The notes under the pieces are model-generated. The model was not told the origin of the DNA and did no database searches. It saw only the letters and a list, made by a program, of their open reading frames with translations. 64,000 nucleotides of DNA from an uncultured Erysipelotrichaceae bacterium (GTDB lineage: Bacteria > Bacillota_I > Bacilli_A > RF39 > UBA660). Location of the stretch: assembly GCA_902793375.1 (NCBI GenBank), contig CADBDE010000003.1, positions 30,039 through 94,038 of the forward strand. The letters are read 5' to 3'. Positions 1 through 23,262 of the stretch are shown here, piece after piece. Every line of letters begins with the position of its first letter. Positions within the stretch are counted from its first letter, which is position 1. Made by a program: the position numbers and the translations under genes.

Positions 1-995
1 CACACTTTCATACCTTTAAATGCTTCTGATACTGGTCCTGATCCACTTATTGGAACACAACAAGAGAAAGTATTTGGATATTCATTAATCATTTTATAAG
101 CAAGAATTCCACCATGACTATGTCCTGAAAGTGCAATTCTATTCTTATCACCATTACATTTTTTAACTACTTCATCGGTTAATTCTTTTAATGCTTCCGT
201 TGTTCCTTTTTGATCATGACCACAAATATATGGCATTATTACTATTCCCTGTGGAGTTATTTCTTTCTTATCAATCATCCTAGGAAGTCCCTGCTTTAAA
301 GCTGTTGTAGCAGGAAGATTTCCAGCAGAATCTCCATGCATATAAAGAAGTACTGGTAATTTAATGTTTTCTGGATTCTTTGGAACATATACATATGTTT
401 CTATTGTTTTTCCATTCTTTGCAGTAAATTTCAAATAGTTTACTTCTCCATATTTTAAATCTTTAACTTCTACAGGTTTAGTATCACCAGATGAAGAACT
501 TGAAGGAAGAGAAATACTAGAATCTTTTCCTTTTAAAGCAGTTAAATCACTTTTTGCTTTTTCGTGTTTTTCATCGAATTGTTTTTCTAAAGAAGCGATT
601 TGGCTTTGATAATTACTTCTCTTATATTTTTCAGTATCCGAACTACCTTTTATACTATTCATTTTATTTGTTAATTCAGCAATTTGGGTATTGATATTCT
701 CTAATTCACCTATTTTACCAACCAATGCATCAGCTGAATTTATCATTCCCTTAAGTTCACTTGAAACGCTTGAAGAAATTGATGAATAAATTTGTCCTAT
801 TTCATCGAATTTACCCAATATTGTACTTTTATTAGAACTATCATAGTAATTATCTACTCCAGATTTTATAGTTTGTGTTTTGGAAGAAATTTCATTAACT
901 TTACTTATAATATTACTACAAGTAGAATTCATATTACCAATTTGTGGTTCAACACTAGATTTAAATTTTTTTAACTCTGCAGATATTTCTCCCAT
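1..995 (-). CDS. Partial CDS (C-terminus beyond the left window edge). Putative T7SS LXG-type polymorphic toxin: about 180-aa helical/coiled-coil N-terminal region, Ser-rich linker, then an alpha/beta-hydrolase (esterase/lipase-like) domain.
   Basis: Continuous minus-frame ORF from ATG at 995 (RBS aggagg just upstream) to position 1 with no stop. Translation begins MGEISAELKKFKSSVEPQIGNMNS.... It contains the nucleophile-elbow motif GHSHGG preceded by ETYVYVPKN...LLYMHGDSAG, as in esterases/lipases. It lies directly downstream of two small WXG100/Lap-like genes. Confidence 0.5.
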   Translation of the reverse strand, partial: MGEISAELKKFKSSVEPQIGNMNSTCSNIISKVNEISSKTQTIKSGVDNYYDSSNKSTILGKFDEIGQIYSSISSSVSSELKGMINSADALVGKIGELENINTQIAELTNKMNSIKGSSDTEKYKRSNYQSQIASLEKQFDEKHEKAKSDLTALKGKDSSISLPSSSSSGDTKPVEVKDLKYGEVNYLKFTAKNGKTIETYVYVPKNPENIKLPVLLYMHGDSAGNLPATTALKQGLPRMIDKKEITPQGIVIMPYICGHDQKGTTEALKELTDEVVKKCNGDKNRIALSGHSHGGILAYKMINEYPNTFSCCVPISGSGPVSEAFKGMKV

Positions 996-1004
996 AACTA
1001 CCTC

Positions 1005-1340
1005 CTATATAGCAATTTTATCGTCTATATGCTTATTAGCATTTTCTTCATATTCATTATAATTTTTAACTGAACTTTCTAGAAAGGCAATATCACCATC
1101 AAATCTTTCTATTTGTTCTTGAAAACCATTATATAATTCTTCAAAATTATTAAAAACAGAATTACTTGTTTTTGTTTCCCAATAATTTTTTAGATTATTA
1201 GTTTCTTTTTTTATATTTTCTAACTGATTATTTAATTTATCTCTTTCTTTTTTTAACCTGTTTAATTGTTCTGTTAATTTATCAGTATCAATTCTATTTT
1301 CATAGTTCATTTGCATCACTTCTTTCCATTTTAGTGGCAA
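1005..1340 (-). CDS. Small alpha-helical protein, LXG-associated (Lap/DUF3958-like) T7SS helper candidate. True start probably at an internal Met (about 1316 or 1310), because the annotated start overlaps the upstream gene by 41 nt.
   Basis: 111-aa coiled-coil-like sequence (LNRLKKERDKLNNQLENIKKETNNLKNYWE...) immediately upstream of the toxin gene. Gene size and position are typical of LXG partner proteins. Confidence 0.4.
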   Translation of the reverse strand: MPLKWKEVMQMNYENRIDTDKLTEQLNRLKKERDKLNNQLENIKKETNNLKNYWETKTSNSVFNNFEELYNGFQEQIERFDGDIAFLESSVKNYNEYEENANKHIDDKIAI

Positions 1341-1611
1341 AAGTATTATCTATGCCATTATGTTCAAGTGCATTCTTCTTTAGTAATGAGCCATTATCAT
1401 ACAAAAAATTAATAACTTGATCTAGATTATTAATGTGGGTGTTAAATGATACTAAGAAATTATGTCCGTCTGCTCCACCCCAAATACTTTCTATTTCACT
1501 AGATATATTGTTTAATTCTTTTTGTATGTTCATTATCTCCTCACTTCTATCTTGATAATAAACACCATTATCATATACTTTTCTACAATTTATTCTAATT
1601 CTATTTCCCAT
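1300..1611 (-). CDS. WXG100-family (EsxA-like) small secreted protein
   Basis: 103 aa, with a central W-x-G motif (SIWGGADGH) and helical flanks. Placed upstream of an LXG-like gene. Confidence 0.45.
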   Translation of the reverse strand: MGNRIRINCRKVYDNGVYYQDRSEEIMNIQKELNNISSEIESIWGGADGHNFLVSFNTHINNLDQVINFLYDNGSLLKKNALEHNGIDNTFATKMERSDANEL

Positions 1612-1616
1612 AATTA

Positions 1617-2687
1617 TTATCCTTCTTCCTTAATAATAATATTTGAATAAAGAGTTTTCTTTGCTTCATCTCCTAATGTCTTAGTTCCCTCTATAACAGA
1701 GAATGTATTAGACAAATCTTTTATTTCAGAAAGTAAAGTATCTTTATATTTTGAATCAGAAAGAATTTCTTCATAAGTTGCATTCGATGCAGTAGCAACT
1801 GTATCAACAAAATTTCTTGTAAAGTAAATAACATTATCATCTACTTTTTGAAGAGTTGAAGAACCAAAATAAATCTCTTTTAATTGATCTTGGAAATTAG
1901 TTTGTTTTGATAAGAAAGAATAAACATCTGCAATGCTTTTTGAAGAATCAAAAATTGTTGCATTCTTAAAGTTGTTTCTCAAATCATTATCAAAAATTGT
2001 AACTATTATTTTTGAAAAATCTGATACCATTGCACCTGAAGTATAAATTGATTTTAAATTAGTTTGAATTTCATTTTGATCCATATTAGATATTTTTTGT
2101 TTTAAATCATCACTAATATTAGGAGAACTTAATAGTTTTTCCTTAATTACAGATGCTGAATCAGTATTAAATAAATATTCATATAATTCACCATTAAATA
2201 TATTTTGAAATTCTTTAACAATACTTACATAATCATCATTTGTTAATTGAGCAGTTTCTGTTTCTGCTTTTTCATTTATATTTAAATCTTCATTTGAATT
2301 ATTAGACTCATAACTTCCTGTATTGACATTACCATTGTTTGAAGAGCCGCCTCCTGGAGTTGCTGAATAAGAACTGTAAGACGAATCCTCACTTTCTTCG
2401 GCACCACTTTCGTCAGCATCTTCTTGTTCTTGAGCAGATGCACTAATAAGACTAGATATATTCATTGCAAGTTTATCTGATTGTTGTAAAGCAGTCTGTA
2501 AACTTGCAATATAACCAGCACCTATTCCATTTGAAGTTAATGCTGAAAAACTACCACTTACATCAATTGATCCTAAATCAGCTGCCATAACAGCAGAATT
2601 CCAACTATTACATGCTTCTGTTAAACTTGATACATCAACACTTAAATCTTTGTCAGAAAGTTGTGAACTGTAATCATCATTTGCCAT
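1617..2687 (-). CDS. Hypothetical protein with N-terminal helical domain and acidic Ser/Asn-rich linker; possible T7SS-associated substrate or chaperone
   Basis: 356 aa. N-terminus LSVDVSSLTEACNSWNSAVMAADLG..., a low-complexity EDADESGAEESEDSSYSSYS stretch, and a C-terminal region of unknown fold. Same strand as the WXG/LXG genes and first in the cluster. Confidence 0.35.
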   Translation of the reverse strand: MANDDYSSQLSDKDLSVDVSSLTEACNSWNSAVMAADLGSIDVSGSFSALTSNGIGAGYIASLQTALQQSDKLAMNISSLISASAQEQEDADESGAEESEDSSYSSYSATPGGGSSNNGNVNTGSYESNNSNEDLNINEKAETETAQLTNDDYVSIVKEFQNIFNGELYEYLFNTDSASVIKEKLLSSPNISDDLKQKISNMDQNEIQTNLKSIYTSGAMVSDFSKIIVTIFDNDLRNNFKNATIFDSSKSIADVYSFLSKQTNFQDQLKEIYFGSSTLQKVDDNVIYFTRNFVDTVATASNATYEEILSDSKYKDTLLSEIKDLSNTFSVIEGTKTLGDEAKKTLYSNIIIKEEG

Positions 2688-2759
2688 ATTATCACCTATT
2701 TTAATATTAATTCATTTAACAAGATAAGTCAATTTTTTAATATAATTCTTTCATATATT

Positions 2760-7002: not shown

Positions 7003-7404
7003 ATGAATAATTATAATTATTTTGATCCATTAAATATTCCAAATAATGAAAATGCAAACAGTCTTTATGGAGCATATGAAGGATATTTAAAAGGAAATAT
7101 GTTTAGTAATCTATATGAAGAATATAAGGGTTATAAACCTGATGTATTAAGACCTGATAATGAAAAAGAACAAGAGTTATTTAACTTAAATCAAATAGGA
7201 TTTGCTTTACATGACATTAATCTATATTTAGATGTAAATCCAAACGACAATCAAATGCTTAGAATATTTGATAAATATAAGAATTTATATAATGAATTAT
7301 TTACACAATATGAAAATAAATATGGAGCAATTTGTGTAAATAATGTTAATAATAAAATTCCATTTGAATGGGAAAATTCAAGTTTCCCATGGGAGGGTAA
7401 ATAA
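7003..7404 (+). CDS. cotJB: Spore coat protein CotJB family (133 aa; the N-terminal extension may be a fused CotJA-like segment)
   Basis: IGFALHDINLYLDVNPNDNQMLRIFDKYKNLYNELFTQYENKYG matches the CotJB signature. It is translationally coupled (ATG overlapping the stop) to cotJC. Confidence 0.65.
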   Translation: MNNYNYFDPLNIPNNENANSLYGAYEGYLKGNMFSNLYEEYKGYKPDVLRPDNEKEQELFNLNQIGFALHDINLYLDVNPNDNQMLRIFDKYKNLYNELFTQYENKYGAICVNNVNNKIPFEWENSSFPWEGK

Positions 7405-7970
7405 TGTTTCAGTATCAAAAAAAATTACAATATCCAATTAATATAAAAAAGAAAGATTTAAAAATGGCAAAATACTTAGTAACTCAATATGGAGGATCTA
7501 ATGGTGAGCTTGGTGCTGCTTTAAGATATTTAAATCAAAGATATTCAATGCCTGATAATAGAGGAAAGGCACTTCTTACTGATATAGGAACAGAAGAATT
7601 AGCTCATGTTGAAATGATATCAACAATGATTTATCAATTAACAAAAGATGCAACGATTGAAGAGCTTGAAAGTGTTGGATTAGGTCCACATTATGCAGAA
7701 CATAGTAAAGGTCTATATCCAACTGATTCAAATGGAGTTCCATTTACAGTTGCATATTTTGCAACTACTGGAGATCCAATTGCAGATTTATACGAAGATA
7801 TGGCAGCAGAACAAAAAGCAAGAGCAGTATATGAAAATCTAATAAATATGACTGATGATAAAGATGTCATAAATCCATTAATATGGTTAAGACAAAGAGA
7901 AATAGTACATTTTAACATGTTTAAAGATTTAGTTAGTATATATGAAAAAGAAAAGAAAGTTAACTATTAA
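7404..7970 (+). CDS. cotJC: Spore coat protein CotJC (manganese-catalase-like ferritin fold)
   Basis: YQKKLQYPINIK...QYGGSNGELGAALRYLNQRYSMPD...TDIGTEELAHVEMI...DPIADLYEDMAAEQKARAVYE closely parallels B. subtilis CotJC. Confidence 0.85.
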   Translation: MFQYQKKLQYPINIKKKDLKMAKYLVTQYGGSNGELGAALRYLNQRYSMPDNRGKALLTDIGTEELAHVEMISTMIYQLTKDATIEELESVGLGPHYAEHSKGLYPTDSNGVPFTVAYFATTGDPIADLYEDMAAEQKARAVYENLINMTDDKDVINPLIWLRQREIVHFNMFKDLVSIYEKEKKVNY

Positions 7971-7978
7971 CTTTCTTT

Positions 7979-10933
7979 TTATTCATAAAAATCATCAAAT
8001 TTATTATCTTCCTCTGCTCCATTTTCAAGATTTAAATCAAATTGAGGTTTATTTTCTTCTGTTTGAACTCCCATATATTTATTTGTTTCCTCTTCTTTAA
8101 CTTTTCCTTGATTCAAATCTGAAAAATTAACAAAGTTTCCTGATTTCATATCTTCATAATAATCTTTATTATTTGTTGGACTAGTTATATTTCCATTAGT
8201 TGTAATATTATTCTCTTCTTTATTTTTTTGAACATCATCCAATATATTTTTTTGAAAGAACGATGAGTTATTTGTCATATTTTGTTGGTTATTATTACTT
8301 TGATTATCTATAAAAGTCCAATTTTTATTTGAATTCATTCCCATATTTGAATTATTCTGAATTCCAAAGCCGGTAGGATTATTATTAATTCCAAATCCTG
8401 CTGGATTATTATTTATTCCAAATCCCGTTGGATTAAATTGTTGATTTTGATTATTACCTTCATTACTTAAGGCAGCTGCAGAATTAGTAATGGCAGAAAG
8501 ATTATTCAATTTTTCAAAAGTTGGAAATTCATTAACAATCTCTCCATTTTTAATGCTCATATTATCAATAATCATATCATTATCTATAATACCAGTTGAA
8601 TTATTATCATTATTTTGTTTATCTTGATCTACACTATACATTGGTGCTCCAAATAATGTTTCTGAATTTTCATCTTTAGAACTTTCTCCATACATTGGTG
8701 CTCCAAACAATGTTTCACCACCATTATTAGAAGAACTATTATTAAAGAATGATCCAGTAGGTTGATTATTAGTAGGTATTTCACTATTCATTGGTCCACT
8801 AAACGATTGATTATTCATTTGTTGGTTCATTGGTCCTTGCATTGGTCCTCCATACATTTGATCATTCATTGGTGGGTTCATTGGTCCTTGCATTGGTCCT
8901 CCATACATTTGGTCATTCATTGGTGGGTTCATTGGTCCTTGCATTGGTCCTCCAAACATCTGGTCATTCATTGGTGGGTTCATTGGACCTTGCATTGCTC
9001 CTCCAAACATCTGGTCATTCATTGGTGGGTTCATTGGTCCTTGCATTGCTCCTCCATACATTTGGTCATTCATTGGCATGTTAATTGGTCCTTGCATTGG
9101 TCCTCCGAACACTTGGTCATTCATTGGCATGTTCATTGGTCCTTGCATTGGTCCTCCATACATTTGATCATTCATTGGCATGTTCATTGGTCCTTGCATT
9201 GGTCCTCCGAACATTTGATCATTCATTGGCATGTTCATTGGTCCTTGCATTTGATTGTTCATATTATAATTTCCACCAGTATTTGAATTTGCAACAGAAC
9301 TTCCACTCATAAGCATATCAATTCTATTTCTATCTTCATTATTATTTGCATTATTTTCAGGATGAAAATAATTCTGATACTTATCAAAATTTTGATTGCT
9401 TATATCTTGTCTTTCTGGTTTAAAATCATTATTCCACATACGCTTTCCCTCATTCTTTTTGTTTTTTTGATTTCCTCTATATTTTTCAGGCACATATTCT
9501 ATATTTTGTTCTTCTATTTCAGCATTACTTCCAATTGGTCTTCCAAGTAAAAAGCCATCATCTACTCCAGGTCTTATTTCATCAGTAACGACATAATCTA
9601 TAACTTGTTTTTGTTTTGGAGCTTCGTTTTTTAATACTCCAACATTTGATGATAATATCATATCATCTAGTTTACTTGAATCAACTGTTTTATTAATTTT
9701 TTCTTTCAATCCGGTAGAAACAGCAGCTGATCCTACTTTTGCATATTTTGTTTTTCCAGTTGATGTAATTATATTATTGATTGGTTTACTATTTCTAAGT
9801 TCAACCTTATCAATCATATCTGGATCACTTTCGAATAAAGACATTTTGTTTTGGAATTCTTCTTCCTCTTTTCTTTTCTTCATCCGATTATTATATACTT
9901 CATTATTCTTTATTTTTAATTCTTCGTGGCTTTCTTCATCGCCATCATCTTCTTCATTGTTTTCTAACTCACTTCTTGTTAAAGTTCCATCTTTTCGCCA
10001 CTCTTCAATTGGTTTCTCGCCCTTTTCCTCAAGCATTATATCATTAAACATCTTATCAAAATTAGGTAGTTCTTTTTTTATAACATCTGGATAAATGTTT
10101 TTAGAATTTTCTATTGCTTTTCTAACATCAAATATATCCATATATGGTCTATTATCATATACTGTATATGAAAAAGCTTGTTTTAAAAGTGTTAAACATA
10201 CATCAGGATACCTTGATCCTAGTGAAAATATTCTTTTATATTCACTAGTTATGTCTACGATGAAACTCATAATTCTTTCTTGAATAAATGATGTATACTT
10301 CATCTTCCTTCCTGTTTGTTTTTCAAACTTTGGAAGAGTTCCCATCATTATTGCTATTGTTTCATCTCTTGAAGGTTCTGGAACTTCAATTTTCTGAAAT
10401 CTTCTTGTAAAAGCTTTATCTCTTAAAATATATCTTTCATATTCTTCTGTCGTAGTAGCACCAATTACTTTTATGCTTCCTCTACCCAACCCCTCTTTAA
10501 AAATATTGGCAAAGTCCAATGATGAAGTTTCTGTTGATCCAATCAACATATGAATTTCATCTATAAATAATATTATTTTTTCTTTAGTTTTTAATTCATC
10601 AATCATTTTTTGAACTTTGCTTTCTCCACTTGGCATTGTTCCAAGTAAAGAAGCTGTTTTAATATTTAAAATTGTATATCCCTGTAAGGCATCAGGTACA
10701 TTGTTTTGTTGAATTCTATATGCTAATCCTTCAACAATAGCAGTTTTACCTATACCTGGTTTTCCAATTAAAATTGCAGATTTTTCAGGGGTTAATAGGA
10801 CTAAAATTAATTCTTTTATTTGCTGATCTCGCCCAATGGCAGGATCAGTAACATATTCATCTTTAGTGACATCTGTACCATAACGTTCAAGTACACTAAA
10901 ATTGGCTTCGAATTCCATTGTTTCCTTATCCAT
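7979..10933 (-). CDS. AAA+ ATPase with a single ClpA/ClpB D1-like module, followed by a long low-complexity C-terminal region (tandem 17-aa PMNMPMNDQMYGG repeats, FG and N/Q-rich tail)
   Basis: N-terminus DPAIGRDQQIKELILVLLTPEKSAILIGKPGIGKTAIVEGLAYRI...ILFIDEIHMLIG...RRFQKIEVPEPS matches the Clp/Hsp100 D1 Walker A/B and sensor regions. No Clp N-domain and no D2. About nine repeats of GGPMQGPMNMPMNDQMY, then NPTGFGINNNPAGFGINNNPTGFGIQNN. Confidence 0.7.
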   Translation of the reverse strand: MDKETMEFEANFSVLERYGTDVTKDEYVTDPAIGRDQQIKELILVLLTPEKSAILIGKPGIGKTAIVEGLAYRIQQNNVPDALQGYTILNIKTASLLGTMPSGESKVQKMIDELKTKEKIILFIDEIHMLIGSTETSSLDFANIFKEGLGRGSIKVIGATTTEEYERYILRDKAFTRRFQKIEVPEPSRDETIAIMMGTLPKFEKQTGRKMKYTSFIQERIMSFIVDITSEYKRIFSLGSRYPDVCLTLLKQAFSYTVYDNRPYMDIFDVRKAIENSKNIYPDVIKKELPNFDKMFNDIMLEEKGEKPIEEWRKDGTLTRSELENNEEDDGDEESHEELKIKNNEVYNNRMKKRKEEEEFQNKMSLFESDPDMIDKVELRNSKPINNIITSTGKTKYAKVGSAAVSTGLKEKINKTVDSSKLDDMILSSNVGVLKNEAPKQKQVIDYVVTDEIRPGVDDGFLLGRPIGSNAEIEEQNIEYVPEKYRGNQKNKKNEGKRMWNNDFKPERQDISNQNFDKYQNYFHPENNANNNEDRNRIDMLMSGSSVANSNTGGNYNMNNQMQGPMNMPMNDQMFGGPMQGPMNMPMNDQMYGGPMQGPMNMPMNDQVFGGPMQGPINMPMNDQMYGGAMQGPMNPPMNDQMFGGAMQGPMNPPMNDQMFGGPMQGPMNPPMNDQMYGGPMQGPMNPPMNDQMYGGPMQGPMNQQMNNQSFSGPMNSEIPTNNQPTGSFFNNSSSNNGGETLFGAPMYGESSKDENSETLFGAPMYSVDQDKQNNDNNSTGIIDNDMIIDNMSIKNGEIVNEFPTFEKLNNLSAITNSAAALSNEGNNQNQQFNPTGFGINNNPAGFGINNNPTGFGIQNNSNMGMNSNKNWTFIDNQSNNNQQNMTNNSSFFQKNILDDVQKNKEENNITTNGNITSPTNNKDYYEDMKSGNFVNFSDLNQGKVKEEETNKYMGVQTEENKPQFDLNLENGAEEDNKFDDFYE
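8812..9250. repeat. In-frame tandem DNA repeat, 51-bp period, about 8-9 copies, encoding the PMNMPMNDQMYGG protein repeats of the AAA+ gene
   Basis: Unit ttgcattggtcctccatacatttggtcattcattggtgggttcattggtcc is repeated head-to-tail with few substitutions (visible 8841-9250). Confidence 0.85.
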
Positions 10934-11354
10934 TGAACAAGCCTCCTATCATAGAACATTATAACACACGATTATGTATTTAATAAAGATAAAATAAAGA
11001 AAAAAAGAAACTTTTTTGTAGAAGATATCATATATCTAAATCTTCATCTTTACGATGAGCTAAAAATTTTGATGGTACTAAGGATTCTTTAATTGATGAA
11101 TCGCATAAATCTCTCTCAAAACACCCTAACGCTCAAACTGAATAAGAATTAAAATGGATTAAAGACATCTCTAATATTACTCTCCCTGAATTATATTGAA
11201 AAGTTGAAAGAAGTCATAGAAATGATCAATAAAGATTATATTCTTATCTAAAGTTCTATTCCTATGATAATTTATTACTTCAAATGAAAGTTTATCTTAA
11301 ACGTTCAAATAACATCATACTTGGTTGAATTTCTACTATTCAAAAAAAATCTAT

Positions 11355-11395
11355 TAGAAAAGCAATGCTAATGCACTGCTTTTGGTATTAATATT
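11355..11395 (-). terminator. Rho-independent terminator (bidirectional hairpin) downstream of the 11536..13923 operon
   Basis: Stem aaagcaatgc / gcactgcttt with loop taat and T/A runs on both sides. Confidence 0.45.
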
Positions 11396-11535
11396 TTTTC
11401 ATTTTTTTAGTATCACATCATTTACAATTATACAAAATAAAGAAAAAAGAAGCATTTTTTTGAAAGTGTATTCTATCACAAAACCAGTTTTTTATTAATG
11501 TCTACTTAGATGGGTACATTTCAAATAGTTTTTTA

Positions 11536-11736
11536 TTATCGACGTCTTACATTATCTTGAGATTCATAAGTAAAATTTCTTAACACTTCTTGTTTTTCTA
11601 TTTCTAAAAGCATTTTTATTTCTTCACTTGTTAATCCTTTTGCTTTTAAAACATATACCATCTCATCAGGTGGTAATTGTTTAATTACCTCTCTTATAGA
11701 TAGTTCTTTATAATTATCAACCATAAAACCCTCCAT
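11536..11736 (-). CDS. Small conserved protein (66 aa), paralog of 14044..14244. Start taken at MEGFMVDNY; the 83-aa track ORF has a spurious N-terminal extension.
   Basis: MEGFMVDNYKELSIREVIKQLPPDEMVYVLKAKGLTSEEIKMLLEIEKQEVLRNFTYESQDNVRRR is about 85% identical to the product of 14044..14244. It is placed 3 nt downstream of the large surface-protein gene. Confidence 0.55.
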   Translation of the reverse strand: MEGFMVDNYKELSIREVIKQLPPDEMVYVLKAKGLTSEEIKMLLEIEKQEVLRNFTYESQDNVRRR

Positions 11737-11790
11737 AAATAAACTGTATATAATACTATATATAATAATATAGTAATAATCAAGCACTTA

Positions 11791-13923
11791 TTAATTATTT
11801 TTAACTATTTTATGACATCTACGATTAATTGCTAAAAGTGTTCCAAAACTGATAAACAGTATAAAGCAATACTTTTTAATTGAATCATCAGTTGCTGGGT
11901 TATCAAGTACTTCATCTATTTTCCAGTTAACAGCTATTGTTACATTTTCAAACGGCATAGTAAATTTATTAAGCATTATAGATATTGTTCCATCTTCATT
12001 TTTTATTAAATCGTTTTCTTCAAAAGCTATTTCTTCTCCACTAGATGTTCTTACAATTATCTCCTTCAATTTTACTCCATTTTTAGAAGTAAGTTTAAAA
12101 GTTATTTCTTCTCCTCCTTTTGCATTATCTACAACTTCTATTTCCCCATTTTCATCTATTTCAGTATCTACTTTATAACTCAATTCACTAATTGGTATTG
12201 TTATTACAGGACGAACTCCACAGCCTAATTTAGTTTTATAATCATTAAGTATACTACCACATACAGATCTACTAGTTGTATCAAATCCTGCTCCACATAT
12301 GCCACCAGAACTATCTACAAATACAACTGAATTAACTCCTATTCCATTATTTGATCTATCATATCCTGCTCTTATCCAGTATGTTGTATTATATATAAAA
12401 CTATGTTTTTTCGCTAATAAGTCATTTAAAAAACCAAACTCATAATGTGGGGGTTGAATTGTTGGAGTTGCGCTACTCCACTCTTGATAAGGCAATGTTT
12501 TATTATTTAGCTTAGTTATTTCATTTATTTCATCTAATGTCAATAAATCAACGTCTGTAACATCAACACCATAAAAGTTTAAAGTAGTTTTGTATGATTT
12601 CAATTTTGTTAATATAGATGTCTCTGAATTATTATTTCCTAAAGTCAAATCATAAAAATATCCATCATATTTATCACCACTTGCTTCATCAACATAAAAA
12701 TCTACAAATGTATTAATATGTCCATTATAATATTGACGAGATTCTATATATATATCTCCTACTTGTGGATATAAATAATTGCCATCTTCATCCCAATGAG
12801 CACTTTTTGCTTCTTCATTTTGAGTTATTAAATCTGTTGAGATTTCTTGAGCTATAAAACAATAATTTGGAATATTATAATATCCTTCTCTTCTTGATTC
12901 AGCACCCAACGAAGTAGCTAAGTCTTGACAATATTCTTCATCAGTTCTATTATCACTAGAGTCTTTTTCTATTTTAATTTTTGATATTGTAGTACCTGTA
13001 TATAGATTATATTTTGATATCATTCTTACTTTTTCACTATCTTTTGATAATAAATAAAAATGTTCTTCACCACAGGCAATTTCATCACCTATTTCTTTTC
13101 CACTACCACTAATAACTTGACATTGCCATTTATCATGCTTTCCAAAATTTACTTCAACATATAATGATCCCATTGGTCTACTAGTAGACAAAGAAACAAA
13201 CTCATTTTCCAATGAATGAATATCATATTTTTCATATAAAATGTTTCCTTGATAGTCTTTTACAACAATTGAATCAACATAATTAAATTTGTCTGGAACT
13301 GCATAAAAATATACACTTTCATTTAATACATTAGTTAGTTCACTAACAGTTGTTGTTCCATTACCATTTATAGTTACATTAGTATCAAATTTAACACGGG
13401 TATAAAAGTTTCTATCCATTGAATCAACTATACTACAAGAAGAATTTCGACAACAACTTACAGTGCTTTTATCAGTAAATCTAAATTCATTTTCATTTGT
13501 TTTAAAGTAAAAATAATTATCAATAGATCCTTTATTATTATCATAATAATAAGAATAAAGAATACCTCCAAAGTTTGAATTAAGTGGAACCCAATCATGC
13601 GCTGACATGTCTATAAAAAAATTACTAGTTTTATTTTCATATATTACTTTATTACCAGTTATTTTTATAACTTCATTTTGAAAAGTATATCCTTCTACAT
13701 TTACTAAATATAAAAGTCCAGCTAGTTTTTCTGGAGTATTAATTAAGTAGTCATAATTTCCATAAAATGAAGAAACATCCCCCTTAACATTATTATAAGT
13801 ACTTGGATCAAACCAACTTGTATCTCTATAAGATGGATCATCTAACCAAGTATCTGCTTTCACCATTGTTGGTATAAAGAATAATGTTAATAATGTGACA
13901 ATTAAAAAAATTGCTTTTTTCAT
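11791..13923 (-). CDS. Secreted cell-surface protein (710 aa) with signal peptide, variable central domains and a conserved C-terminal module ending in an NPATD motif, hydrophobic segment and basic tail (putative cell-wall sorting/anchor signal)
   Basis: N-terminus MKKAIFLIVTLLTLFFIPTMVKA. C-terminus ...NWKIDEVLDNPATDDSIKKYCFILFISFGTLLAINRRCHKIVKNN. Last 130 aa are about 70% identical to the 14286..15998 product. Internal region CQVISGSGKEIGDEIACGEEHFY is shared with the paralog. Confidence 0.6.
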   Translation of the reverse strand: MKKAIFLIVTLLTLFFIPTMVKADTWLDDPSYRDTSWFDPSTYNNVKGDVSSFYGNYDYLINTPEKLAGLLYLVNVEGYTFQNEVIKITGNKVIYENKTSNFFIDMSAHDWVPLNSNFGGILYSYYYDNNKGSIDNYFYFKTNENEFRFTDKSTVSCCRNSSCSIVDSMDRNFYTRVKFDTNVTINGNGTTTVSELTNVLNESVYFYAVPDKFNYVDSIVVKDYQGNILYEKYDIHSLENEFVSLSTSRPMGSLYVEVNFGKHDKWQCQVISGSGKEIGDEIACGEEHFYLLSKDSEKVRMISKYNLYTGTTISKIKIEKDSSDNRTDEEYCQDLATSLGAESRREGYYNIPNYCFIAQEISTDLITQNEEAKSAHWDEDGNYLYPQVGDIYIESRQYYNGHINTFVDFYVDEASGDKYDGYFYDLTLGNNNSETSILTKLKSYKTTLNFYGVDVTDVDLLTLDEINEITKLNNKTLPYQEWSSATPTIQPPHYEFGFLNDLLAKKHSFIYNTTYWIRAGYDRSNNGIGVNSVVFVDSSGGICGAGFDTTSRSVCGSILNDYKTKLGCGVRPVITIPISELSYKVDTEIDENGEIEVVDNAKGGEEITFKLTSKNGVKLKEIIVRTSSGEEIAFEENDLIKNEDGTISIMLNKFTMPFENVTIAVNWKIDEVLDNPATDDSIKKYCFILFISFGTLLAINRRCHKIVKNN

Positions 13924-14043
13924 ATTACACCCTCACTTTATTATAATTCTATTATATATTATAATTATTAAAAACAACGTAACGAAATTATATTTTTAAT
14001 GTAAATGAGTGTAAAGAAAAACGAACTAAAATAGTTCGTTTTG

Positions 14044-14244
14044 TTATCTACATTTTACATTATCTTGAGATTCATAAGCAAAATTTCTTAATGCTTCTTG
14101 TTTTTCTATTTCTAGAAGCATTTTTATTTCTTCACTTGTTAATCCTTTTGCTTTCAATGCATCAATCATCTCATCAAGTGGTAATTGTCTAATTACCTCT
14201 CTTATAGATAATTCTTTATAATTATCAACCATAAAACCCTCCAT
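14044..14244 (-). CDS. Small conserved protein (66 aa), paralog of 11536..11736
   Basis: MEGFMVDNYKELSIREVIRQLPLDEMIDALKAKGLTSEEIKMLLEIEKQEALRNFAYESQDNVKCR. Confidence 0.55.
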   Translation of the reverse strand: MEGFMVDNYKELSIREVIRQLPLDEMIDALKAKGLTSEEIKMLLEIEKQEALRNFAYESQDNVKCR

Positions 14245-14285
14245 AAATATAACTGCACATAATACTATAAATAATCAAGCACTTA

Positions 14286-15998
14286 TTAATTATTTTTTGC
14301 TTTTTTATGGCATTTACGATTAATTGCTAAAAGTGTTCCATAACTGATAAATAAAATAAAGCAGTACTTTGCAATTTCATCATCAGTTGCTGGGTTATCA
14401 AGTACTTCATCTATTTTCCAGTTAGCTGTTATTGTTACATTTTCAAAAGGCATAACAAATTTATTATTCATTATTGTTACTGTTCCATCTTCGTTTTCAA
14501 TTAAATCTCCTTCAGTAAACTCTATTGTCGTTCCATTCTCGGTTGTTATTGTGATAGTAGATAATTTATATCCTTTTTTAGGAGACACTTTAAAACTTAT
14601 TGTTTCATTTCCTGCTGAATTATCTACTACTTCTATTTCACCATTGTTATCTGTTTCTGCAGCGATATTATATAAGATTTCATTTTTTGATAATGTAATT
14701 AAAGGTCTTAGTCCTGCTCCAACATCAACTGAACAGTACCCAGCATTACATATATCTCCCCAACTATCTACAAAGAAAGCATTACTTCCAGAATCTCTCG
14801 TTCTAGTCCAATATGTTGTAGCCCATATCCATGAATAATCATCTGGTATATGATCTTTTAAACTACCAATAATATTAAAATTAGCTCCAAAATGGTTTCC
14901 TTGTTGCCAATTTGATGTCCAATCATCAAGTGGTAATCTATTATTCGTTGTATTATATGTGAAATTATCTAAATCTTTTACAGTAATTAGATTGATATCA
15001 CTTATTCCAACATTTAAAGATTCTAAATATCTTTTATAAAACAATAATGAATTTGTCATTTTTTGATCATAACTATAATCTAATATAACATCTCGATAAT
15101 TATTATCGTTATATGATGAATTACTATCAAATGATCCCTGTCCTAACGGATTAGCGGTAAATGATCCATATTCAGGTAATTCAGCTACTCCTCTTACTGC
15201 TCCATGAGCTCCAATTGCTAACTCACTTTGTTTAACCATTTTTGATTCATTCATTTTTTTATAATAATATCCATAATAATAAATAACGGAATACTTAGTA
15301 TCTTTAAATTCAGAATAATGGATACTATATCCTTCTGCTATTTTTTGTTGATATTCTTCTGAACTTTGTATTTCATTAATATTTAACGAATGGTTTGAAT
15401 CTTCTGCCATGTGTATTTCTGTTGTATAAGAGTCATTTTTATAAAGTATAATATAAGTTGCATCATAGTAATACTCACCGTTAATTACTTCTCTAGTACT
15501 ATATCCTAATGTAATACTAATAGTACTTTTAGGAATAAAGCCTTCATTTTGAATAGCATCAATTACTTCAGGTAAATATAGTATTTCTCTATATGTTCTT
15601 GGTGTCCCATCAAGTTGAATTTTTTTATATGTAATCTCCATTTCTTTATAAAATGTATAATCCGTCTCGTTTTTTTGAAAATCATAAGCCGCTTTTTGTT
15701 CTGAATATCCAAGATTTAATAATTCTTGGGCTTTTTCATTATTACTATACCCAGGATAGCGTCCAGGAATAACGACATGATCAAATTGATTACCATCAAA
15801 TATATTATATTTTGCTAATAATCTTAGATTAGAATCATCTTTGTCAAATACGTAAAAGTGTTCCCCTCCACAATCAATTTCACTACCTAAATCATTTCCG
15901 TTTCCTGACACTACTCTACAGTGGCCTTCAGCATCTACAACTTTTGGTATAAAGAATAATGTTAATAATGTGACAATTAAAAAAAATACTTTTTTCAT
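14286..15998 (-). CDS. Secreted cell-surface protein (570 aa), paralog of 11791..13923, with the same C-terminal NPATD/hydrophobic/basic anchor
   Basis: N-terminus MKKVFFLIVTLLTLFFIPKVVDA. C-terminus ...NWKIDEVLDNPATDDEIAKYCFILFISYGTLLAINRKCHKKAKNN. DNA around the stop/start junction (14270-14340) duplicates 11788-11850. Confidence 0.6.
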   Translation of the reverse strand: MKKVFFLIVTLLTLFFIPKVVDAEGHCRVVSGNGNDLGSEIDCGGEHFYVFDKDDSNLRLLAKYNIFDGNQFDHVVIPGRYPGYSNNEKAQELLNLGYSEQKAAYDFQKNETDYTFYKEMEITYKKIQLDGTPRTYREILYLPEVIDAIQNEGFIPKSTISITLGYSTREVINGEYYYDATYIILYKNDSYTTEIHMAEDSNHSLNINEIQSSEEYQQKIAEGYSIHYSEFKDTKYSVIYYYGYYYKKMNESKMVKQSELAIGAHGAVRGVAELPEYGSFTANPLGQGSFDSNSSYNDNNYRDVILDYSYDQKMTNSLLFYKRYLESLNVGISDINLITVKDLDNFTYNTTNNRLPLDDWTSNWQQGNHFGANFNIIGSLKDHIPDDYSWIWATTYWTRTRDSGSNAFFVDSWGDICNAGYCSVDVGAGLRPLITLSKNEILYNIAAETDNNGEIEVVDNSAGNETISFKVSPKKGYKLSTITITTENGTTIEFTEGDLIENEDGTVTIMNNKFVMPFENVTITANWKIDEVLDNPATDDEIAKYCFILFISYGTLLAINRKCHKKAKNN

Positions 15999-16244
15999 AT
16001 CATACTCCTTAGATTTTATACTTTTATTATAAATGATAAATTTGAAAAACCATTAAATTAAAATAAATTTAAAATGTAAACCTGTAAAGTAAAAAAAGAG
16101 CTATAAGCTCTTTTTAATACAATATGGTGCGATACAAGAGCCTATTTTGAACACTTATATCCAAAAGAATAACTAATAAATATCAGTTCTATATATAATA
16201 GACCATATTTTTGAGTAATATCAACGATTTTTAGGACGTTTTTT

Positions 16245-16292
16245 TTGATTTTTTCGAAAAAATGTAGTATAGTATTAACCGTTTCGAAAAGG
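16245..16292 (+). promoter_or_regulatory. Sigma-A-type promoter for orf 16303..17700 with perfect 10-bp palindrome TTTTCGAAAA in the spacer and a second TTTCGAAAA copy in the leader (candidate operator)
   Basis: -35 TTGATT (16245-16250), 17-bp spacer, -10 TATAGT (16268-16273). Palindrome ttttcgaaaa at 16251-16260 and tttcgaaaa at 16282-16290. RBS aaaagggg before the ATG at 16303. Confidence 0.35.
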
Positions 16293-16302
16293 GGAAATAC
16301 TT

Positions 16303-17700
16303 ATGAAAATACAAATAAAAGATATAGAACTTATTTTTTCCAAAAATCAACAACAATTTATAGATGAGATTAAAACGATAATTCTAAACAACTATGAATT
16401 AATACTTGGTTGTTTAGGCGAAAACAAAACAATTGATATTTCTCAAGATGAATCTAATTTTAATGACACATTTTATTATATCGTTAAAGGAACGTATAAT
16501 GATGCTAATATTAGACGGTTACTTTATGATAAATTTTTTTTATTAAAACTTTATATTGAAGTTTTAATTAGAAGAAAAAATTATTCTAATATTTCAATAG
16601 ATCATAATCCGAATATAACTGATGAATTGTTATCTTCATTGATAGCATATAAATATTTTGAAACAAATGGATCTTTTGATGATTTTGTAGAATACCTAAA
16701 AGTTAGAAATACGGAAGAAACAATATTTGAATGGTTAAAAATTAATCAAAGATGGGAGACATATAATTACTTACTAAACATAGCATTAAATGGTTTAAAA
16801 GAAGAGGACGATGATTTTTTAACGCATGTAACTTATATAATAAGTTATTTTTCAAAAAAGGCCTTAGAATGCAACAAAAAGGAAAAAGCACCAAAAGTAG
16901 ATTATCCCAATATTTCTGATATAGAATTTGACCGTTTATTTTATGAATTTTTAAATTTTATTAATGCTCCAGATAGTTGGATAGATATTTATAATAGTCT
17001 TAAAGAGCAAAAATTATTAATTAGGGAACATGGGGTAACCGAATGTTTTCAAGATGAAGATGGAATATATAAGATTAAATTAGAAAATAGTAATGATTTA
17101 TTTGTTTTTTGTAATTTTGTTCATGAATTTATTCATTACATTTCAATGAAAGATGATTTTCTAAAAGCAGAAAAATTAATTGAAGAATTTCCTAGTATAT
17201 TTTTTGAAAAAATAGCTGCCGAATTTTTAACAATTAAAGGTTATCCAAATGTAATTATTGATATAATTGATGATGATAGAGATAGCAACAATTATTATAT
17301 AGTTACTTTTCCTTTATTTTTAAGAATATATGCCGATTTAATATATTATTTTAAAAATGGTAAAATAGAAAAAGAAAATATGATGGCTACATTGCAATCC
17401 TTTTTTGATGATGAAAGTAAACCATCTCGAACTGATTTAGAAAAACGTGCAGATGACTATTGCGATTTTCTAATAGATTTTTTTATTGAAGAAGGACTAC
17501 TATTTGGTTATCAATATTTATTTGATACTTATTTAGCAGAACAAGTATTAAATAAAAGAGAGCAAGATAATACAATAATTAAAAAAATGATTAATGTAAC
17601 TAATAATTTAGGAATGACAAGTGTTAAAGACATTCTAACTTTATTTGGTATTGAAAACACACTACAAGAAGAAGCAGCTAAAAAGTTAATAAAAAAATAA
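16303..17700 (+). CDS. Hypothetical protein with HExxH zinc-metallopeptidase-like motif
   Basis: 465 aa; the only recognizable motif is FVHEFIHYISM (HExxH) near residue 275. No signal peptide or TM helix. Confidence 0.45.
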   Translation: MKIQIKDIELIFSKNQQQFIDEIKTIILNNYELILGCLGENKTIDISQDESNFNDTFYYIVKGTYNDANIRRLLYDKFFLLKLYIEVLIRRKNYSNISIDHNPNITDELLSSLIAYKYFETNGSFDDFVEYLKVRNTEETIFEWLKINQRWETYNYLLNIALNGLKEEDDDFLTHVTYIISYFSKKALECNKKEKAPKVDYPNISDIEFDRLFYEFLNFINAPDSWIDIYNSLKEQKLLIREHGVTECFQDEDGIYKIKLENSNDLFVFCNFVHEFIHYISMKDDFLKAEKLIEEFPSIFFEKIAAEFLTIKGYPNVIIDIIDDDRDSNNYYIVTFPLFLRIYADLIYYFKNGKIEKENMMATLQSFFDDESKPSRTDLEKRADDYCDFLIDFFIEEGLLFGYQYLFDTYLAEQVLNKREQDNTIIKKMINVTNNLGMTSVKDILTLFGIENTLQEEAAKKLIKK

Positions 17701-17714
17701 AGGTAAAATTGAGT

Positions 17715-18905
17715 TTATCTCTCAAAGTCATCTTTTCCTTTGCTTAAATCCAACTCTTCAATATTATCATCATCTAAAACATTATCATCATACATGTCAT
17801 TAATAACATCAATATATTTATCATCTTTATCATACCAACTATGAAGTTTATCGTGTAAGAAGGATATTAATTTACTAAATTTATCCTTCCAATAATCTAT
17901 TGTATCTTTTAAATCTTGTATTTTAGATTTTAAAAATGATATTTCATTATTCTTTTCTTTAATTGTATCATTTAAAGTCTTAACTCTTAAATTAAGTACT
18001 TCATTGTTTTCAGTAAGAGTTTTAATCTTATTATTTTTATCTTTTAATTGTTCGTGAGCATTTACTAGTGTATTAGATAGAGTTTGTATTTTATCATATT
18101 CTTTATTAGTGTTATCTACTTGATTGATAAAGTCGATAAAAGTTTTTTTATCTTCTTTTGATAAAATATAATTATCTTTATTAAATCTAGATACTTTTAA
18201 TTTATCAATTTTATCTTTTATATCTTTGGAATTTTGTTTTAACTCCGAAGATTTTTTATTTGCTTGTTTTAGATTTTCGGTATTCTTTTCAATTTGCTTT
18301 TTCATTTCAATATAGTTATCCATATCAGATACATGAATATCTCTATTTCTACCTTTTTGTTTTTGTTTTAAAGTAGAGTCTAAACTATATACTTGATTAA
18401 ATTCTTCAATACATAAAGTTCTCATTTTATCTTGCAATCTTATTAAAGATTCTTTAGTAAATACATCAGATTTACCAACTTGTTTTTCCATACCATTTTT
18501 ATTTTTATATTTAATTGGAACTCCAACAATATGTAAATGTGGACTTGTTTCATCATAATGAATAATTGCACTAGCTACTTTAAAATTTGGAACAAGCATT
18601 TCTAAATCATCAACTTGTTTTTTATATACTTCTGACATTTTCTTTTTAAAGTTTTCATCTTTAGTATCCCAATATTCTTTATCTCCAAGTTCAAGTATTA
18701 TTTCACAAGCAAGATCTTTTTTCTCGTTATTAGATACATTTTCAAAATAATTATCTATCATACGACTAGGTCTAGATTGTTTAGAATTATATTCTAATCT
18801 TGCTTCTTCAAATTCACTTAAATAAAGTTCTTTTACATCATCAAGTGGAGAAGAAGTACCTCTTATTATTTCAATTAGTTCTTGATTATTAACATATTTT
18901 CTTTT
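17715..18905 (-). pseudogene. mob: MobV/Pre-family plasmid mobilization relaxase, 5-prime truncated. Annotated ORF is 17715..18761; the reading frame stays open upstream to a TGA at 18906-18908 with no start codon.
   Basis: HYDETSPHLHIVGVP matches the Mob_Pre HxDE...PHxH metal-binding motif. KDLACEIILELGDKEYW aligns to the KDAVL...TSDKDFF segment of pMV158 MobM. The N-terminal roughly 45 aa, including the catalytic region, are absent. In-frame upstream codons ...YVNNQELIEIIRGTSSPLDDVKELYLSEFEEARLEYNSKQSRPSR precede the annotated Met and stop at the repeat boundary. Confidence 0.65.
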
Positions 18906-18909
18906 TCAT

Positions 18910-18991
18910 ACAACAAAAAATCAATTCCATTTCTAGAATTGATATTTATTAGTAAATTGAACCTAAGTTCAACCAGATTCTTTAATGGTGC
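18910..18991. repeat. 82-bp direct repeat, copy 1, abutting the truncated mob gene
   Basis: acaacaaaaaatcaattccatttctagaattgatatttattagtaaattgaacctaagttcaaccagattctttaatggtgc is identical to 19769..19850 except one T/A difference. Confidence 0.85.
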
Positions 18992-19100
18992 GAGTGTCGT
19001 AGATATCTACAACTTTTCACAAGTACGGATGATATAAATATCACTCATTAAATACATTCTACCAAATAATAGAAAAGGTAGCAATATGTTTCATGCTACT

Positions 19101-19679
19101 TTATCTTTTTTTTGGAGAATCACTTTTTTGTTCTTTATGTGATTCTTCATAAAACCAATTTTTATCATAAGAATTATAACTATTTATATCTATCATTACA
19201 TTTTCACCAATGATTGGATTTAAAGACCATCCTTCTCCAAATGTGTGTTTACATCCATCTTTAAAATTTGACGAAAATTCTTGTTGTAATAATCTATATA
19301 ATTTTCTCAAATCTTCATTGCTTACCATTTTAATAGTATCACTTGTTATTCTTGTACCTTGTTCACATCTACCATAGTCTATTAAATTACCATTTCGTAA
19401 CATATATAAAACATATAATTCATTAGTATTTTCCACACATTGTTTAATATAGTTAATAAATTTTGTACATGCTTCATTAAATATATCTAAGTCACTACTA
19501 AATATGCTATTAGTTTCATCAGCTACATCAGGAAACATAGATTTAATCATATCAGCTGCTTTCTTATAATTTTCAAAACATTCATTTAGAAAAGGAACAA
19601 CAGGATCATTTTTATCTATACCTTTTTCATCGATTTCTTGTACTTTTTTAAATGTATCTTCCTTATTCATAGTCATCAC
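19101..19679 (-). CDS. Hypothetical protein (192 aa) inside the repeat-flanked cassette
   Basis: ORF with good codon usage and several Cys (CFENY, CTKF, CVENT, GRCEQG, CKHTF). No recognizable motif. Confidence 0.45.
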   Translation of the reverse strand: MMTMNKEDTFKKVQEIDEKGIDKNDPVVPFLNECFENYKKAADMIKSMFPDVADETNSIFSSDLDIFNEACTKFINYIKQCVENTNELYVLYMLRNGNLIDYGRCEQGTRITSDTIKMVSNEDLRKLYRLLQQEFSSNFKDGCKHTFGEGWSLNPIIGENVMIDINSYNSYDKNWFYEESHKEQKSDSPKKR

Positions 19680-19768
19680 TCATCCTTTAGATGTATTCAT
19701 TATAACACAGTTTTAAGATATTTTAACATTTTTTACATTTCTATTTCAAAATCATCCCTTTCTTTTAC

Positions 19769-19850
19769 ACAACAAAAAATCAATTCCATTTCTAGAATTG
19801 ATATTTATTAGTAAATTGAACCAAAGTTCAACCAGATTCTTTAATGGTGC
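19769..19850. repeat. 82-bp direct repeat, copy 2. Its last 6 nt are the 3-prime end (GCACCA) of tRNA-Leu.
   Basis: 81/82 identical to 18910..18991. The copies are 859 bp apart. Confidence 0.85.
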
Positions 19851-19930
19851 CTGAGGTGGGACTTGAACCCACACGGTGTCGCCACCATCGGATTTTGAGT
19901 CCGACACGTCTACCATTCCATCACTCAGGC
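19845..19930 (-). tRNA. tRNA-Leu (anticodon CAA) with long variable arm and encoded CCA
   Basis: Reverse complement gcctgag...tcggaCTCAAAAtccga...long variable arm tggtggcgacaccgtgt...GGTTCAAGTCCC...ctcaggc-a-cca. Anticodon loop is CTCAAAA. Confidence 0.85.
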
Positions 19931-22782: not shown

Positions 22783-23262
22783 CTATTCTTTACTTTTTTT
22801 AACAGACTTTTTTTCTTTATTTTTAGTTTCTTTTTTCTTTATAGTTTTTTTTGTAACATTCTTCTTTTTTGTTGCTTTAATTGGTTTTTCAATATTTATA
22901 ATATTTTCTTTTTCTATTTTTCTTTTTTTATTTTTATTGTGATTAATTAATGTATATAAATCATAACCAATACTTATTAATAATGCAATTAATAGAATAA
23001 AAGATAAAGTACCTAAATAATAAGAATCAACTACTTTGTCTGAAAGTATATCTTCTTTATCTGGTAATAACCAAAGTACTAAACCTCCTGAAAACAGTGT
23101 AATAATAAATAACAAGTATAATATGATTGTAATATTACTTAACTTTTGAATTAAATATTTAAGAATAATAAATCCAAGTACTACAAACAAAATAATTGTT
23201 AAAAAATTCTTGAAGAAAAATGCACTAATCATACAAAAAAAATAATTTATTGCATATATCAT
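22783..23262 (-). CDS. Hypothetical membrane protein with Lys-rich C-terminal tail
   Basis: Three predicted TM helices, then KKKNVTKKTIKKKETKNKEKKSVKKSKE. Confidence 0.4.
   Translation of the reverse strand: MIYAINYFFCMISAFFFKNFLTIILFVVLGFIILKYLIQKLSNITIILYLLFIITLFSGGLVLWLLPDKEDILSDKVVDSYYLGTLSFILLIALLISIGYDLYTLINHNKNKKRKIEKENIINIEKPIKATKKKNVTKKTIKKKETKNKEKKSVKKSKE

Follow-up and report, generated by a model that had tools for sequence, protein, structure and literature searches.

A minus-strand operon of four genes, located at one end of a 64,000-nt stretch of DNA from an uncultured Erysipelotrichaceae bacterium (contig CADBDE010000003.1, positions 30,039–94,038; this whole stretch is referred to below as the window), is probably a substrate operon of a T7SS (type VII secretion system). 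Its cargo would be a carboxylesterase, which is probably not a self-toxic antibacterial toxin. The operon (window positions 1–2687) encodes protein X, two small helical proteins, Wa and Wb, and the effector, in which a helical N-terminal domain precedes an α/β-hydrolase domain. A preliminary description of the window had proposed a T7SS substrate module at this site. The proposal is supported by two WXG100 genes upstream of the effector gene, by a counterpart of the cassette located after an EssC gene in a distant relative (locus L015), and by the polymorphism of the N-terminal domain, which is combined with different C-terminal domains. Candidate substrates of diverse T7SS variants usually adjoin one or two small WXG100-related genes, and the X-Wa-Wb-effector cassette with its L015 counterpart fits this published adjacency (PMC11217815).

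Organization of the Operon

All four minus-strand genes of the preliminary description are found again in the list of open reading frames (ORFs) and their translations. Gene X (1617–2687, 356 aa) is followed by the gene of Wa (1300–1611, 103 aa), which contains the motif S-I-W-G-G, by the gene of Wb (1005–1316) and by the effector gene, which starts with an ATG at position 994 behind AGGAGG. The first 331 of its 406 codons occupy positions 1–994, and the gene continues past the left window edge. Wb consists of 103 aa when it is read from the ATG at 1316, while the ORF 1005–1340 gives 111 aa from a TTG at 1340. The ATG at 1316, at which the gene is called on public contigs, is the more likely start; the start of Wb overlaps the end of Wa.

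Intergenic gaps in the operon are 5–10 nt long, or the genes overlap. The region between a VanY-type gene and the operon (2690–2759, minus strand) contains, as read from the sequence, a promoter-like site TTGACT-17-TAATAT and a ribosome-binding site AGGTGA. Taken together, the short gaps and overlaps, the promoter-like site and the ribosome-binding site are consistent with a single operon. The window is extended leftward by the public contig L001, which covers approximately 10 kb beyond the esterase gene. The same promoter-like site was located at 8264–8292 of L001 in a consensus scan, where matches are no commoner than in shuffled sequence. The host DNA is very AT-rich (25% G+C), and in such DNA the scan for promoter and terminator consensus sequences is uninformative, TTGACT-17-TAATAT being a consensus match only.

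WXG100 Proteins Wa and Wb

By their profile matches, Wa and Wb are members of the WXG100 family. In the Pfam profile search Wb matches PF06013 (WXG100) with 32.3 bits (cut-off 27.3). Its matches to the NCBIfam models ESAT6_2 (under that model's cut-off) and TIGR03930 have E values of 3e-13 and 2e-8, respectively. Wa by itself gives 21.6 bits against PF06013, so a check of the two proteins with this profile, which had been suggested earlier, places Wb above the cut-off and Wa alone under it. The joint Wa+Wb profile matches full-length EsxA/EsxB chains among the sequences of solved structures (PDB) with E values from 5e-10 to 1e-5, and the structures concerned are those of S. agalactiae, B. anthracis, Geobacillus, S. 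aureus and M. tuberculosis. The 103-aa protein with the SIWGG motif was thus rightly called WXG100-like. The 111-aa product had been described as a coiled-coil protein; the ORF exists, but Wb is the stronger WXG100 match of the two.

An alignment can be made between the Wa and Wb families and extended to the WXG100 genes of a real T7SS locus; of 14 aligned sequences, 13 have the hairpin Trp. The turn motif is W-G-G in Wa; in Wb it is W-E-T here, with the Gly lost, and W-A-G in distant homologs. A conserved C-terminal motif occupies an equal alignment position in both proteins: HxxxD in Wa (HNGID) and YxxxE/D in Wb (YNEYE). In T7SS substrates the WxG turn and YxxxD/E, joined by pairing, form a composite secretion signal (PMC7028111). 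The counterparts of Wa by homology are the WXG100 gene that comes first after X in L015 and, in another locus, L014, the first of two small pre-effector genes. Between species, Wa is conserved at 72% and the effector at 51–54%.

Protein X and the T7SS-Linked Counterpart of the Cassette

In L015, EssC (1531 aa) contains an FHA domain and two FtsK/SpoIIIE domains and matches TIGR03928 with 1016 bits (cut-off 778). The next gene (83 aa) could correspond to EsaB/YukD by its size and place, and no profile matches it. It is followed by a 456-aa homolog of X (E = 6e-13), by a 96-aa WXG100 homolog of Wa (E = 5e-8), by a 110-aa WXG100 homolog of Wb (E = 3e-8) and by the effector P0182 (768 aa), which bears the same type of N-terminal domain. 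The E value of P0182 is 4e-4 against the N-terminal domain of the esterase and 2.5e-6 in the search with the profile of this domain. The seventh gene encodes a DUF4176 protein (E = 2e-24), and two further WXG100 genes occupy places eight and nine. The genes of 456, 96, 110 and 768 aa match X, Wa, Wb and the effector one for one and in the same order; judged by these matches, the entire cassette, beyond the effector alone, has a T7SS-linked counterpart. In L014 the distant domain member P0183, an effector of 1107 aa, is preceded by WXG100-like genes of 97 and 110 aa.

Recognizable EssB, EsaA and EssA were not found in L015 (1011–2939, 13492–15421). Two paralogous, cytoplasmic-looking proteins of approximately 317 aa are encoded before essC, and the WXG100 genes are followed by those of a 272-aa single-pass membrane protein and of a 369-aa protein with a weak Peptidase_C39-like region. 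L015 may represent a further T7SS variant of the kind catalogued earlier (PMC11217815).

Protein X consists of a helical N-terminal segment with a near-invariant Trp29, an acidic Ser/Gly-rich low-complexity linker (approximately residues 90–150) and a conserved C-terminal domain of approximately 200 aa. It contains no hydrophobic stretch suggestive of a signal peptide or a membrane span, and it has no match in Pfam, NCBIfam or the PDB sequences. The family is small (18 matches in the first search) and always adjoins the WXG100 pair; the homolog in L015 lies between the 83-aa gene and this pair. X may be an accessory of the T7SS, as adaptor or chaperone, or itself a co-secreted substrate. An immunity function of X was considered as well and ruled out, since X keeps its place when the cargo changes (L015) or is missing (L098, a relative described below).

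N-Terminal Domain of the Effector

The AlphaFold model of the whole effector has a pLDDT of 87; for residues 1–168 the pLDDT is 91 and the pTM 0.78. The N-terminal domain (approximately 165 aa) is all-helical, with helices 6–50, 56–113 and 120–155 and with Tyr51-x-Ser at the first turn. A Ser-rich disordered linker (156–180) connects it with the compact α/β-hydrolase domain (181–406). The N-terminus is hydrophilic, and no Sec or hydrophobic signal sequence is seen in it. Of 140 sequences, 108 have Y at turn residue 51, 15 have F and 7 have W, followed by x-S/G. This motif sits where WXG and LXG proteins carry theirs, yet differs from it, and there is no L-x-G.

The module had been described earlier as an LXG-type effector, which is not supported by profile or fold searches. 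PF04740 (LXG) gives no match to the esterase at E ≤ 1 and none to ten distant domain members at E ≤ 5, and the LXG models of NCBIfam do not match the effector either. DUF3130 and DUF3958, to which the Lap-type partners were expected to belong, match none of the four proteins in Pfam or NCBIfam, and neither does LXG; the partners are WXG100 proteins, and the 356-aa X matches nothing. Compared with PDB sequences, the N-terminal profile yields low-complexity coiled-coil matches only (for LapA4, 8gmh_C, E = 2.9, which is not meaningful). In the Foldseek search of the domain nothing falls below E = 0.05; the top matches are BAR domains, and no LXG entry occurs among the fold matches. Alignment of the domain with the WXG100 pair by hhalign gives a probability of 1.9%, that is, no relationship.

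An exhaustive search of 1.84 billion representative proteins with a hidden Markov model (HMM) of the N-terminal domain found 188 proteins. The C-terminal part was tallied for the 106 listed matches of at least 330 aa: it is an esterase in 84 and something else in 22. The latter include six proteins with an NlpC/P60-like Cys/His peptidase region, eight with a Gly-rich hydrophobic region followed by repeats, and approximately four that probably are false positives due to coiled coils. That several unrelated C-terminal domains are joined to the same N-terminal domain speaks for a trafficking role. The domain is treated here as a separate family that would be LXG-like in looks and use.

A cytoplasmic or cell-associated esterase, whose N-terminus would be an oligomerization coiled coil and whose WXG100 neighbors would be incidental, is very improbable: such a role would agree with the matches of the N-terminal domain to generic helical bundles and coiled-coil families only, with the lack of a T7SS core gene on the available contig and with a paralog that has no WXG100 neighbors (P0006, see below), but the adjacency of two WXG100 genes recurs in distant relatives, even with another C-terminal domain, the L015 module directly follows EssC, the fusion to several unrelated C-termini points to trafficking, and the closest esterase families include enzymes described as extracellular.

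Esterase Domain

The preliminary description referred to a large gene with a helical N-terminal region and a GHSHGG motif. Both features are present (GHSHGG at residues 291–296), but the full protein is small. It comprises 406 aa, as shown by the 100% identical protein on record, P0001; with 331 aa in the window, just 75 residues lie outside.

The domain matches PF00756 with 37.1 bits (cut-off 22), in agreement with the earlier assignment to the α/β-hydrolases. Its relation to the Thermotoga esterase 3doh is detected both by profile (E = 1.5e-22) and by Foldseek (E = 1.5e-12). Other relatives of solved structure are LC-Est1C, feruloyl and acetyl-xylan esterases of family CE1, esterases of the polyhydroxybutyrate (PHB) depolymerase family and S9 peptidases. 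In NCBIfam the domain matches, only partially, the catalytic domains of extracellular polyhydroxyalkanoate depolymerases. Lipases appear only far down the match lists, the nearest enzymes being short-chain, feruloyl, acetyl-xylan and PHB-depolymerase-type esterases. A lipase toxin, as supposed earlier, is therefore not indicated: the best matches are short-chain carboxylesterases, CE1 and PHB-depolymerase-type esterases, and nothing singles out a lipase. Judged by these matches, the enzyme is a generic carboxylesterase near CE1 and PHB-depolymerase esterases.

The oxyanion residues HG 220–221 and the nucleophile Ser293 (GHSHG) are invariant across the family alignment. The catalytic acid Glu339 is E or D in 16 of 17 sequences, and the catalytic His374, located past the window edge, is conserved with a one-column shift in three sequences. 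Since the catalytic residues are conserved across the family, the esterase should be active as a catalytically intact Ser-Glu/Asp-His carboxylesterase.

Downstream Region and Related Loci

Any immunity gene was expected to lie to the left of the window. L001, which continues the contig in this direction, shows tRNA-Gln(CTG) at 11303–11377, 82 nt past the esterase stop and outside the window, and then the gene of a class Ic Glx-tRNA synthetase (Pfam tRNA-synt_1c, 552 aa; glnS for short). There is no credible ORF between the esterase stop and glnS on L001. The 187-nt gap that follows the esterase is occupied by tRNA-Gln, so that a small ORF considered there was ruled out.

Relatives were found by scanning species-representative genomes with the glnS protein, whereas a scan of the genome collection with patterns of the esterase gave no match. 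The closest of them (76–90% identity) belong to uncultured bins named 'Bacilli bacterium', 'Clostridium sp.' and 'Erysipelotrichaceae', which originate from sheep and cattle rumen and from rabbit, deer and human gut; one complete relative genome has a size of 1.31 Mb. The taxonomic labels of the nearest-relative bins are inconsistent, ranging from 'Bacilli bacterium' even to 'Tenericutes'/'Mycoplasmatota'.

In seven relatives the region just upstream of glnS contains the cassette or, at a minimum, its esterase genes. X, Wa and Wb are detected in five of these (L018, L020, L021, L024, L030) and esterase genes only in L019 and L025. The chromosomal position of the cassette (VanY ... glnS) is kept. 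The relatives possess one to three tandem esterase paralogs with the N-terminal domain, which abut or overlap and leave no space for immunity genes. Two or three diverged tandem esterases are seen in the close relatives L018 (1521–5593), L019 (2–2516) and L020 (3284–5826); in one of them, a 521-aa protein (L018, 1521–3083), the helical domain and the esterase are separated by a long acidic insert. In another relative (L098, 2679–4342) the gene order is PAP2-VanY-X-Wa-Wb-glnS, with no esterase.

The same N-terminal domain recurs in a second esterase, P0006 (409 aa, 47% identical; L004, 10001–11230), which occurs on other public contigs from two of the samples from which the contig of the window was obtained and is probably a paralog in the same organism. 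Its gene stands alone, with its own terminator and promoter, convergent with glmS and with no partner genes of its own. Upstream of it are unrelated genes encoding a DnaC-like protein, a 315-aa membrane protein and a Lys-rich 96-aa protein.

Role of X, Wa and Wb

On the gene arrangements, X-Wa-Wb appears to belong to the generic, shared equipment of the secretion system rather than to be chaperones specific to one effector, because the trio occurs in L098 with no esterase, because one trio precedes up to three esterases and P0006 is an orphan, and because the trio of L015 comes right after EssC and the 83-aa gene while EssC of another contig, L017, has no adjoining WXG100 gene. The strongest hint of a function of their own is provided by L098.

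Alternatively, Wa and Wb could be Lap-type chaperones specific to the esterase, and X could be a dedicated chaperone like EsaE. This is rather doubtful. The position of the genes immediately 5' of the effector gene is that of the lap genes in LXG loci (PMC10730906, PMC11217815); the pair in L014 is directly upstream of its effector as well, and the second WXG100 pair found downstream in L015 implies that several pairs can coexist. However, chaperones dedicated to the esterase would hardly be kept in L098, nor would a single trio be expected before as many as three different esterase paralogs or an orphan paralog such as P0006 without a pair of its own. The EssC locus of L017 likewise has no WXG100 gene of its own, so that the pair must be encoded elsewhere in that lineage. 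Finally, Wa is better conserved across species (72%) than the effector (51–54%).

Exported Enzyme or Antibacterial Toxin

The esterase is more likely to have a role harmless to the producer than that of a classic interbacterial toxin. That it does not harm the producer is suggested by the lack of an adjacent immunity gene together with the one to three abutting paralogs in relatives. In LXG loci the immunity gene normally comes directly 3' of the toxin domain, and antibacterial lipases are paired with immunity proteins (PMC10730906); with tRNA-Gln/glnS downstream and abutting paralogs, the locus departs from this toxin–immunity pattern.

A classic T7SSb antibacterial toxin, directed against lipids or cell-wall esters of competitors, would require an immunity gene encoded elsewhere, or none if the producer lacks the target. 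It is unlikely, although several features are in its favor. The architecture with upstream WXG100 partners is like that of LXG toxins, the N-terminal domain carries toxin-like cargo in other proteins (NlpC/P60-like cysteine peptidases, Gly-rich hydrophobic regions), the effector gene is duplicated and diversified in relatives, as is typical for toxin arrays, and T7SS lipase toxins are known, namely TslA and TslM (PMC10730906, PMC13560087). On the other hand, tRNA-Gln and glnS, and no immunity gene, are found where LXG loci place it (PMC10730906), the tandem paralogs have no room for such genes between them, the locus stably keeps its syntenic place in the chromosome, unlike a variable island, and the enzyme belongs to a generic carboxylesterase family, not to a known family of toxin lipases.

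Proposed Mechanism of Export

X, Wa, Wb and the esterase would be transcribed from their own promoter. Wa and Wb are predicted to pair as WXG100 helical hairpins, whose W-x-G turn and H/YxxxD/E motifs resemble export signals of the EsxA/EsxB type. LXG domains stack with Lap proteins, and PE with PPE proteins, for composite targeting. The three-helix domain of the esterase could similarly bundle with the small helical partners into a composite targeting signal. The resulting rod would present the W-x-G turn and the H/YxxxD/E motifs to the EssC ATPase, followed by export of the complex, with X as a conserved accessory (adaptor, chaperone or co-secreted protein). The exported carboxylesterase would act outside the cell, and its candidate targets are environmental esters, for example those of diet or plant polymers, and host-derived or foreign envelope esters.

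Several points weigh against the export of a harmless esterase by a T7SS. Secretion, complex formation and the substrate are predicted. The N-terminal domain is without detectable LXG or WXG100 homology, and its fold matches are generic long-helix bundles. The link to L015 is a remote similarity (E = 2.5e-6 for the effector domain), though the order of all four genes agrees. Within the 64-kb window and the approximately 10 kb of public contig past the esterase, neither EssC nor another T7SS core gene is present. The EssC contig closest in composition is L017 (G+C 26.1%, tetranucleotide correlation 0.99), from NCBI bin GCA_947627675.1, a low-G+C genome from similar kinds of source. Its EssC (P0286), which adjoins no WXG100 gene, matches TIGR03928 with 1049 bits; the contig is linked to the window by composition only and may come from another organism, because its neighbors resemble more distant clade members. 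An immunity gene may also lie elsewhere in the genome.

A broader interpretation is tentative. In a gut and rumen lineage of Bacilli with a small genome, T7SSb-type export of arrays of immunity-less carboxylesterases could serve feeding on dietary or host esters, or envelope remodeling, and not the killing of neighbors, with targeting by a new helical domain family (Y-x-S type) and the WXG100 heterodimer and with X as a new accessory.

Other Features of the Window

A probable integrated element occupies window positions 7979–19930 beside tRNA-Leu(CAA) (19845–19930). It comprises genes for a 984-aa AAA/STAND-like ATPase (7979–10933), for products of 710 aa (11791–13923) and 465 aa (16303–17700) with no Pfam family above threshold, for a 570-aa product (14286–15998) with a weak Flg_new_2 repeat and likewise no Pfam family above threshold, and for a Mob_Pre relaxase-like protein (17715–18761). 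Neither the 984-aa AAA protein nor the large unannotated ORFs at 8–18 kb were accepted as T7SS parts, since the former is an AAA/STAND-like ATPase, not FtsK/SpoIIIE, and since the Mob_Pre gene and tRNA-Leu suggest an integrated element. The AAA gene is located beside cotJ in the related species L011 as well.

Sporulation genes are found at 7003–7970 and 22783–28119 (cotJB/cotJC, spoVAC/spoVAD/spoVAEB and a sporulation-type sigma factor). The region 28000–37400 holds a run of genes without Pfam matches (products of 421, 183, 304, 291, 365, 175 and 233 aa) near a Macro-domain gene and a glycosyltransferase gene; none of the run resembles genes of the L015 T7SS locus. A LysR regulator gene and two genes of 154 and 565 aa without Pfam match form a trio at 38144–41247, which in another species (L009/L010) is directly beside the esterase cassette and here is 36 kb away. 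A run of defense-type genes (53581–62994) encodes a KAP-family P-loop NTPase (53581–55476), a NERD + HRDC protein (55634–56638), a Schlafen-like helicase (57656–59389), a NOV_C-domain protein (59725–60813), a C-5 cytosine methylase (60815–61918) and a PIN_8 + sigma-70 region 4 protein (61972–62994).

Comparison with Known Systems

To our knowledge, almost all T7SSb effectors studied so far in Bacillota are antibacterial toxins with immunity proteins, recognized via the LXG profile. The operon combines T7SS logic with a targeting domain missed by current profiles, a carboxylesterase cargo, no adjacent immunity gene and an extra conserved protein X; among the LXG/T7SS papers mentioning esterase that a full-text search found, none describes such an effector. 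If the proposed export takes place, the definition of T7SS substrates would be widened, and profile-based surveys would undercount them. Commensals of gut and rumen might then use T7SS for nutrition or toward the host, and there would be a handle on a lineage that is uncultured and known from metagenome bins only.

Wa and Wb share with EsxA/EsxB (PF06013) the length of approximately 100 aa, the full-length structure match, the central Trp and the C-terminal H/YxxxD/E motif. They differ in that Wb has lost the Gly of W-x-G, that Wa alone remains under the Pfam cut-off and that both are encoded apart from any essC on the available contig. The best sequence and fold matches of the esterase, T. 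maritima EstA (3doh) and LC-Est1C (3wyd), have the same α/β-hydrolase core with a GxSxG nucleophile, whereas their identity to the esterase domain is only about 20% and their N-terminal domains are of other kinds, none of them T7SS-targeting.

As in the LXG/Lap toxins (TelA–C of S. intermedius, YxiD of B. subtilis), a helical N-terminal domain of approximately 170 aa precedes a variable enzyme, the effector gene has one or two small helical partner genes immediately 5' of it, varying C-terminal domains are attached to the N-terminal domain, and a distant member is located beside essC. In contrast to these toxins, there is no PF04740 match, Y-x-S/G is present instead of L-x-G, the partners are WXG100 and not DUF3130/DUF3958 proteins, an extra conserved protein X of approximately 350 aa is encoded, an adjacent immunity gene is lacking and the locus is stable and syntenic.

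The 'reverse' lipases TslA and TslM of the S. aureus T7SSb similarly combine an ester hydrolase with a helical targeting domain and two small partners (PMC10730906, PMC13560087). TslA has its lipase at the N-terminus and its targeting domain at the C-terminus, while the usual order is found here, and the immunity lipoprotein TilA adjoins the toxin domain, while no immunity gene is adjacent here (PMC10730906). The enzyme of the operon groups with carboxylesterases, CE1 and PHB-depolymerase esterases, and probably belongs to another family than TslA/TslM.

The mycobacterial PE/PPE hydrolases (ESX-5, LipY) belong to the T7SSa of Actinomycetota. They show no sequence similarity to the proteins described here, their esterase family is another one, and no EspG-type chaperone is recognized in the operon. 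They nevertheless share the combination of a helical targeting domain with an α/β-hydrolase, the absence of an immunity protein, a composite WxG + YxxxD/E signal from partner helices and a proposed role in obtaining lipid or ester nutrients or in upkeep of the envelope (PMC7028111). PE/PPE hydrolases such as LipY are immunity-less T7SS substrates thought to function in nutrient uptake or envelope upkeep (PMC7028111), and the exported carboxylesterase, if confirmed, would be their parallel in Bacillota.

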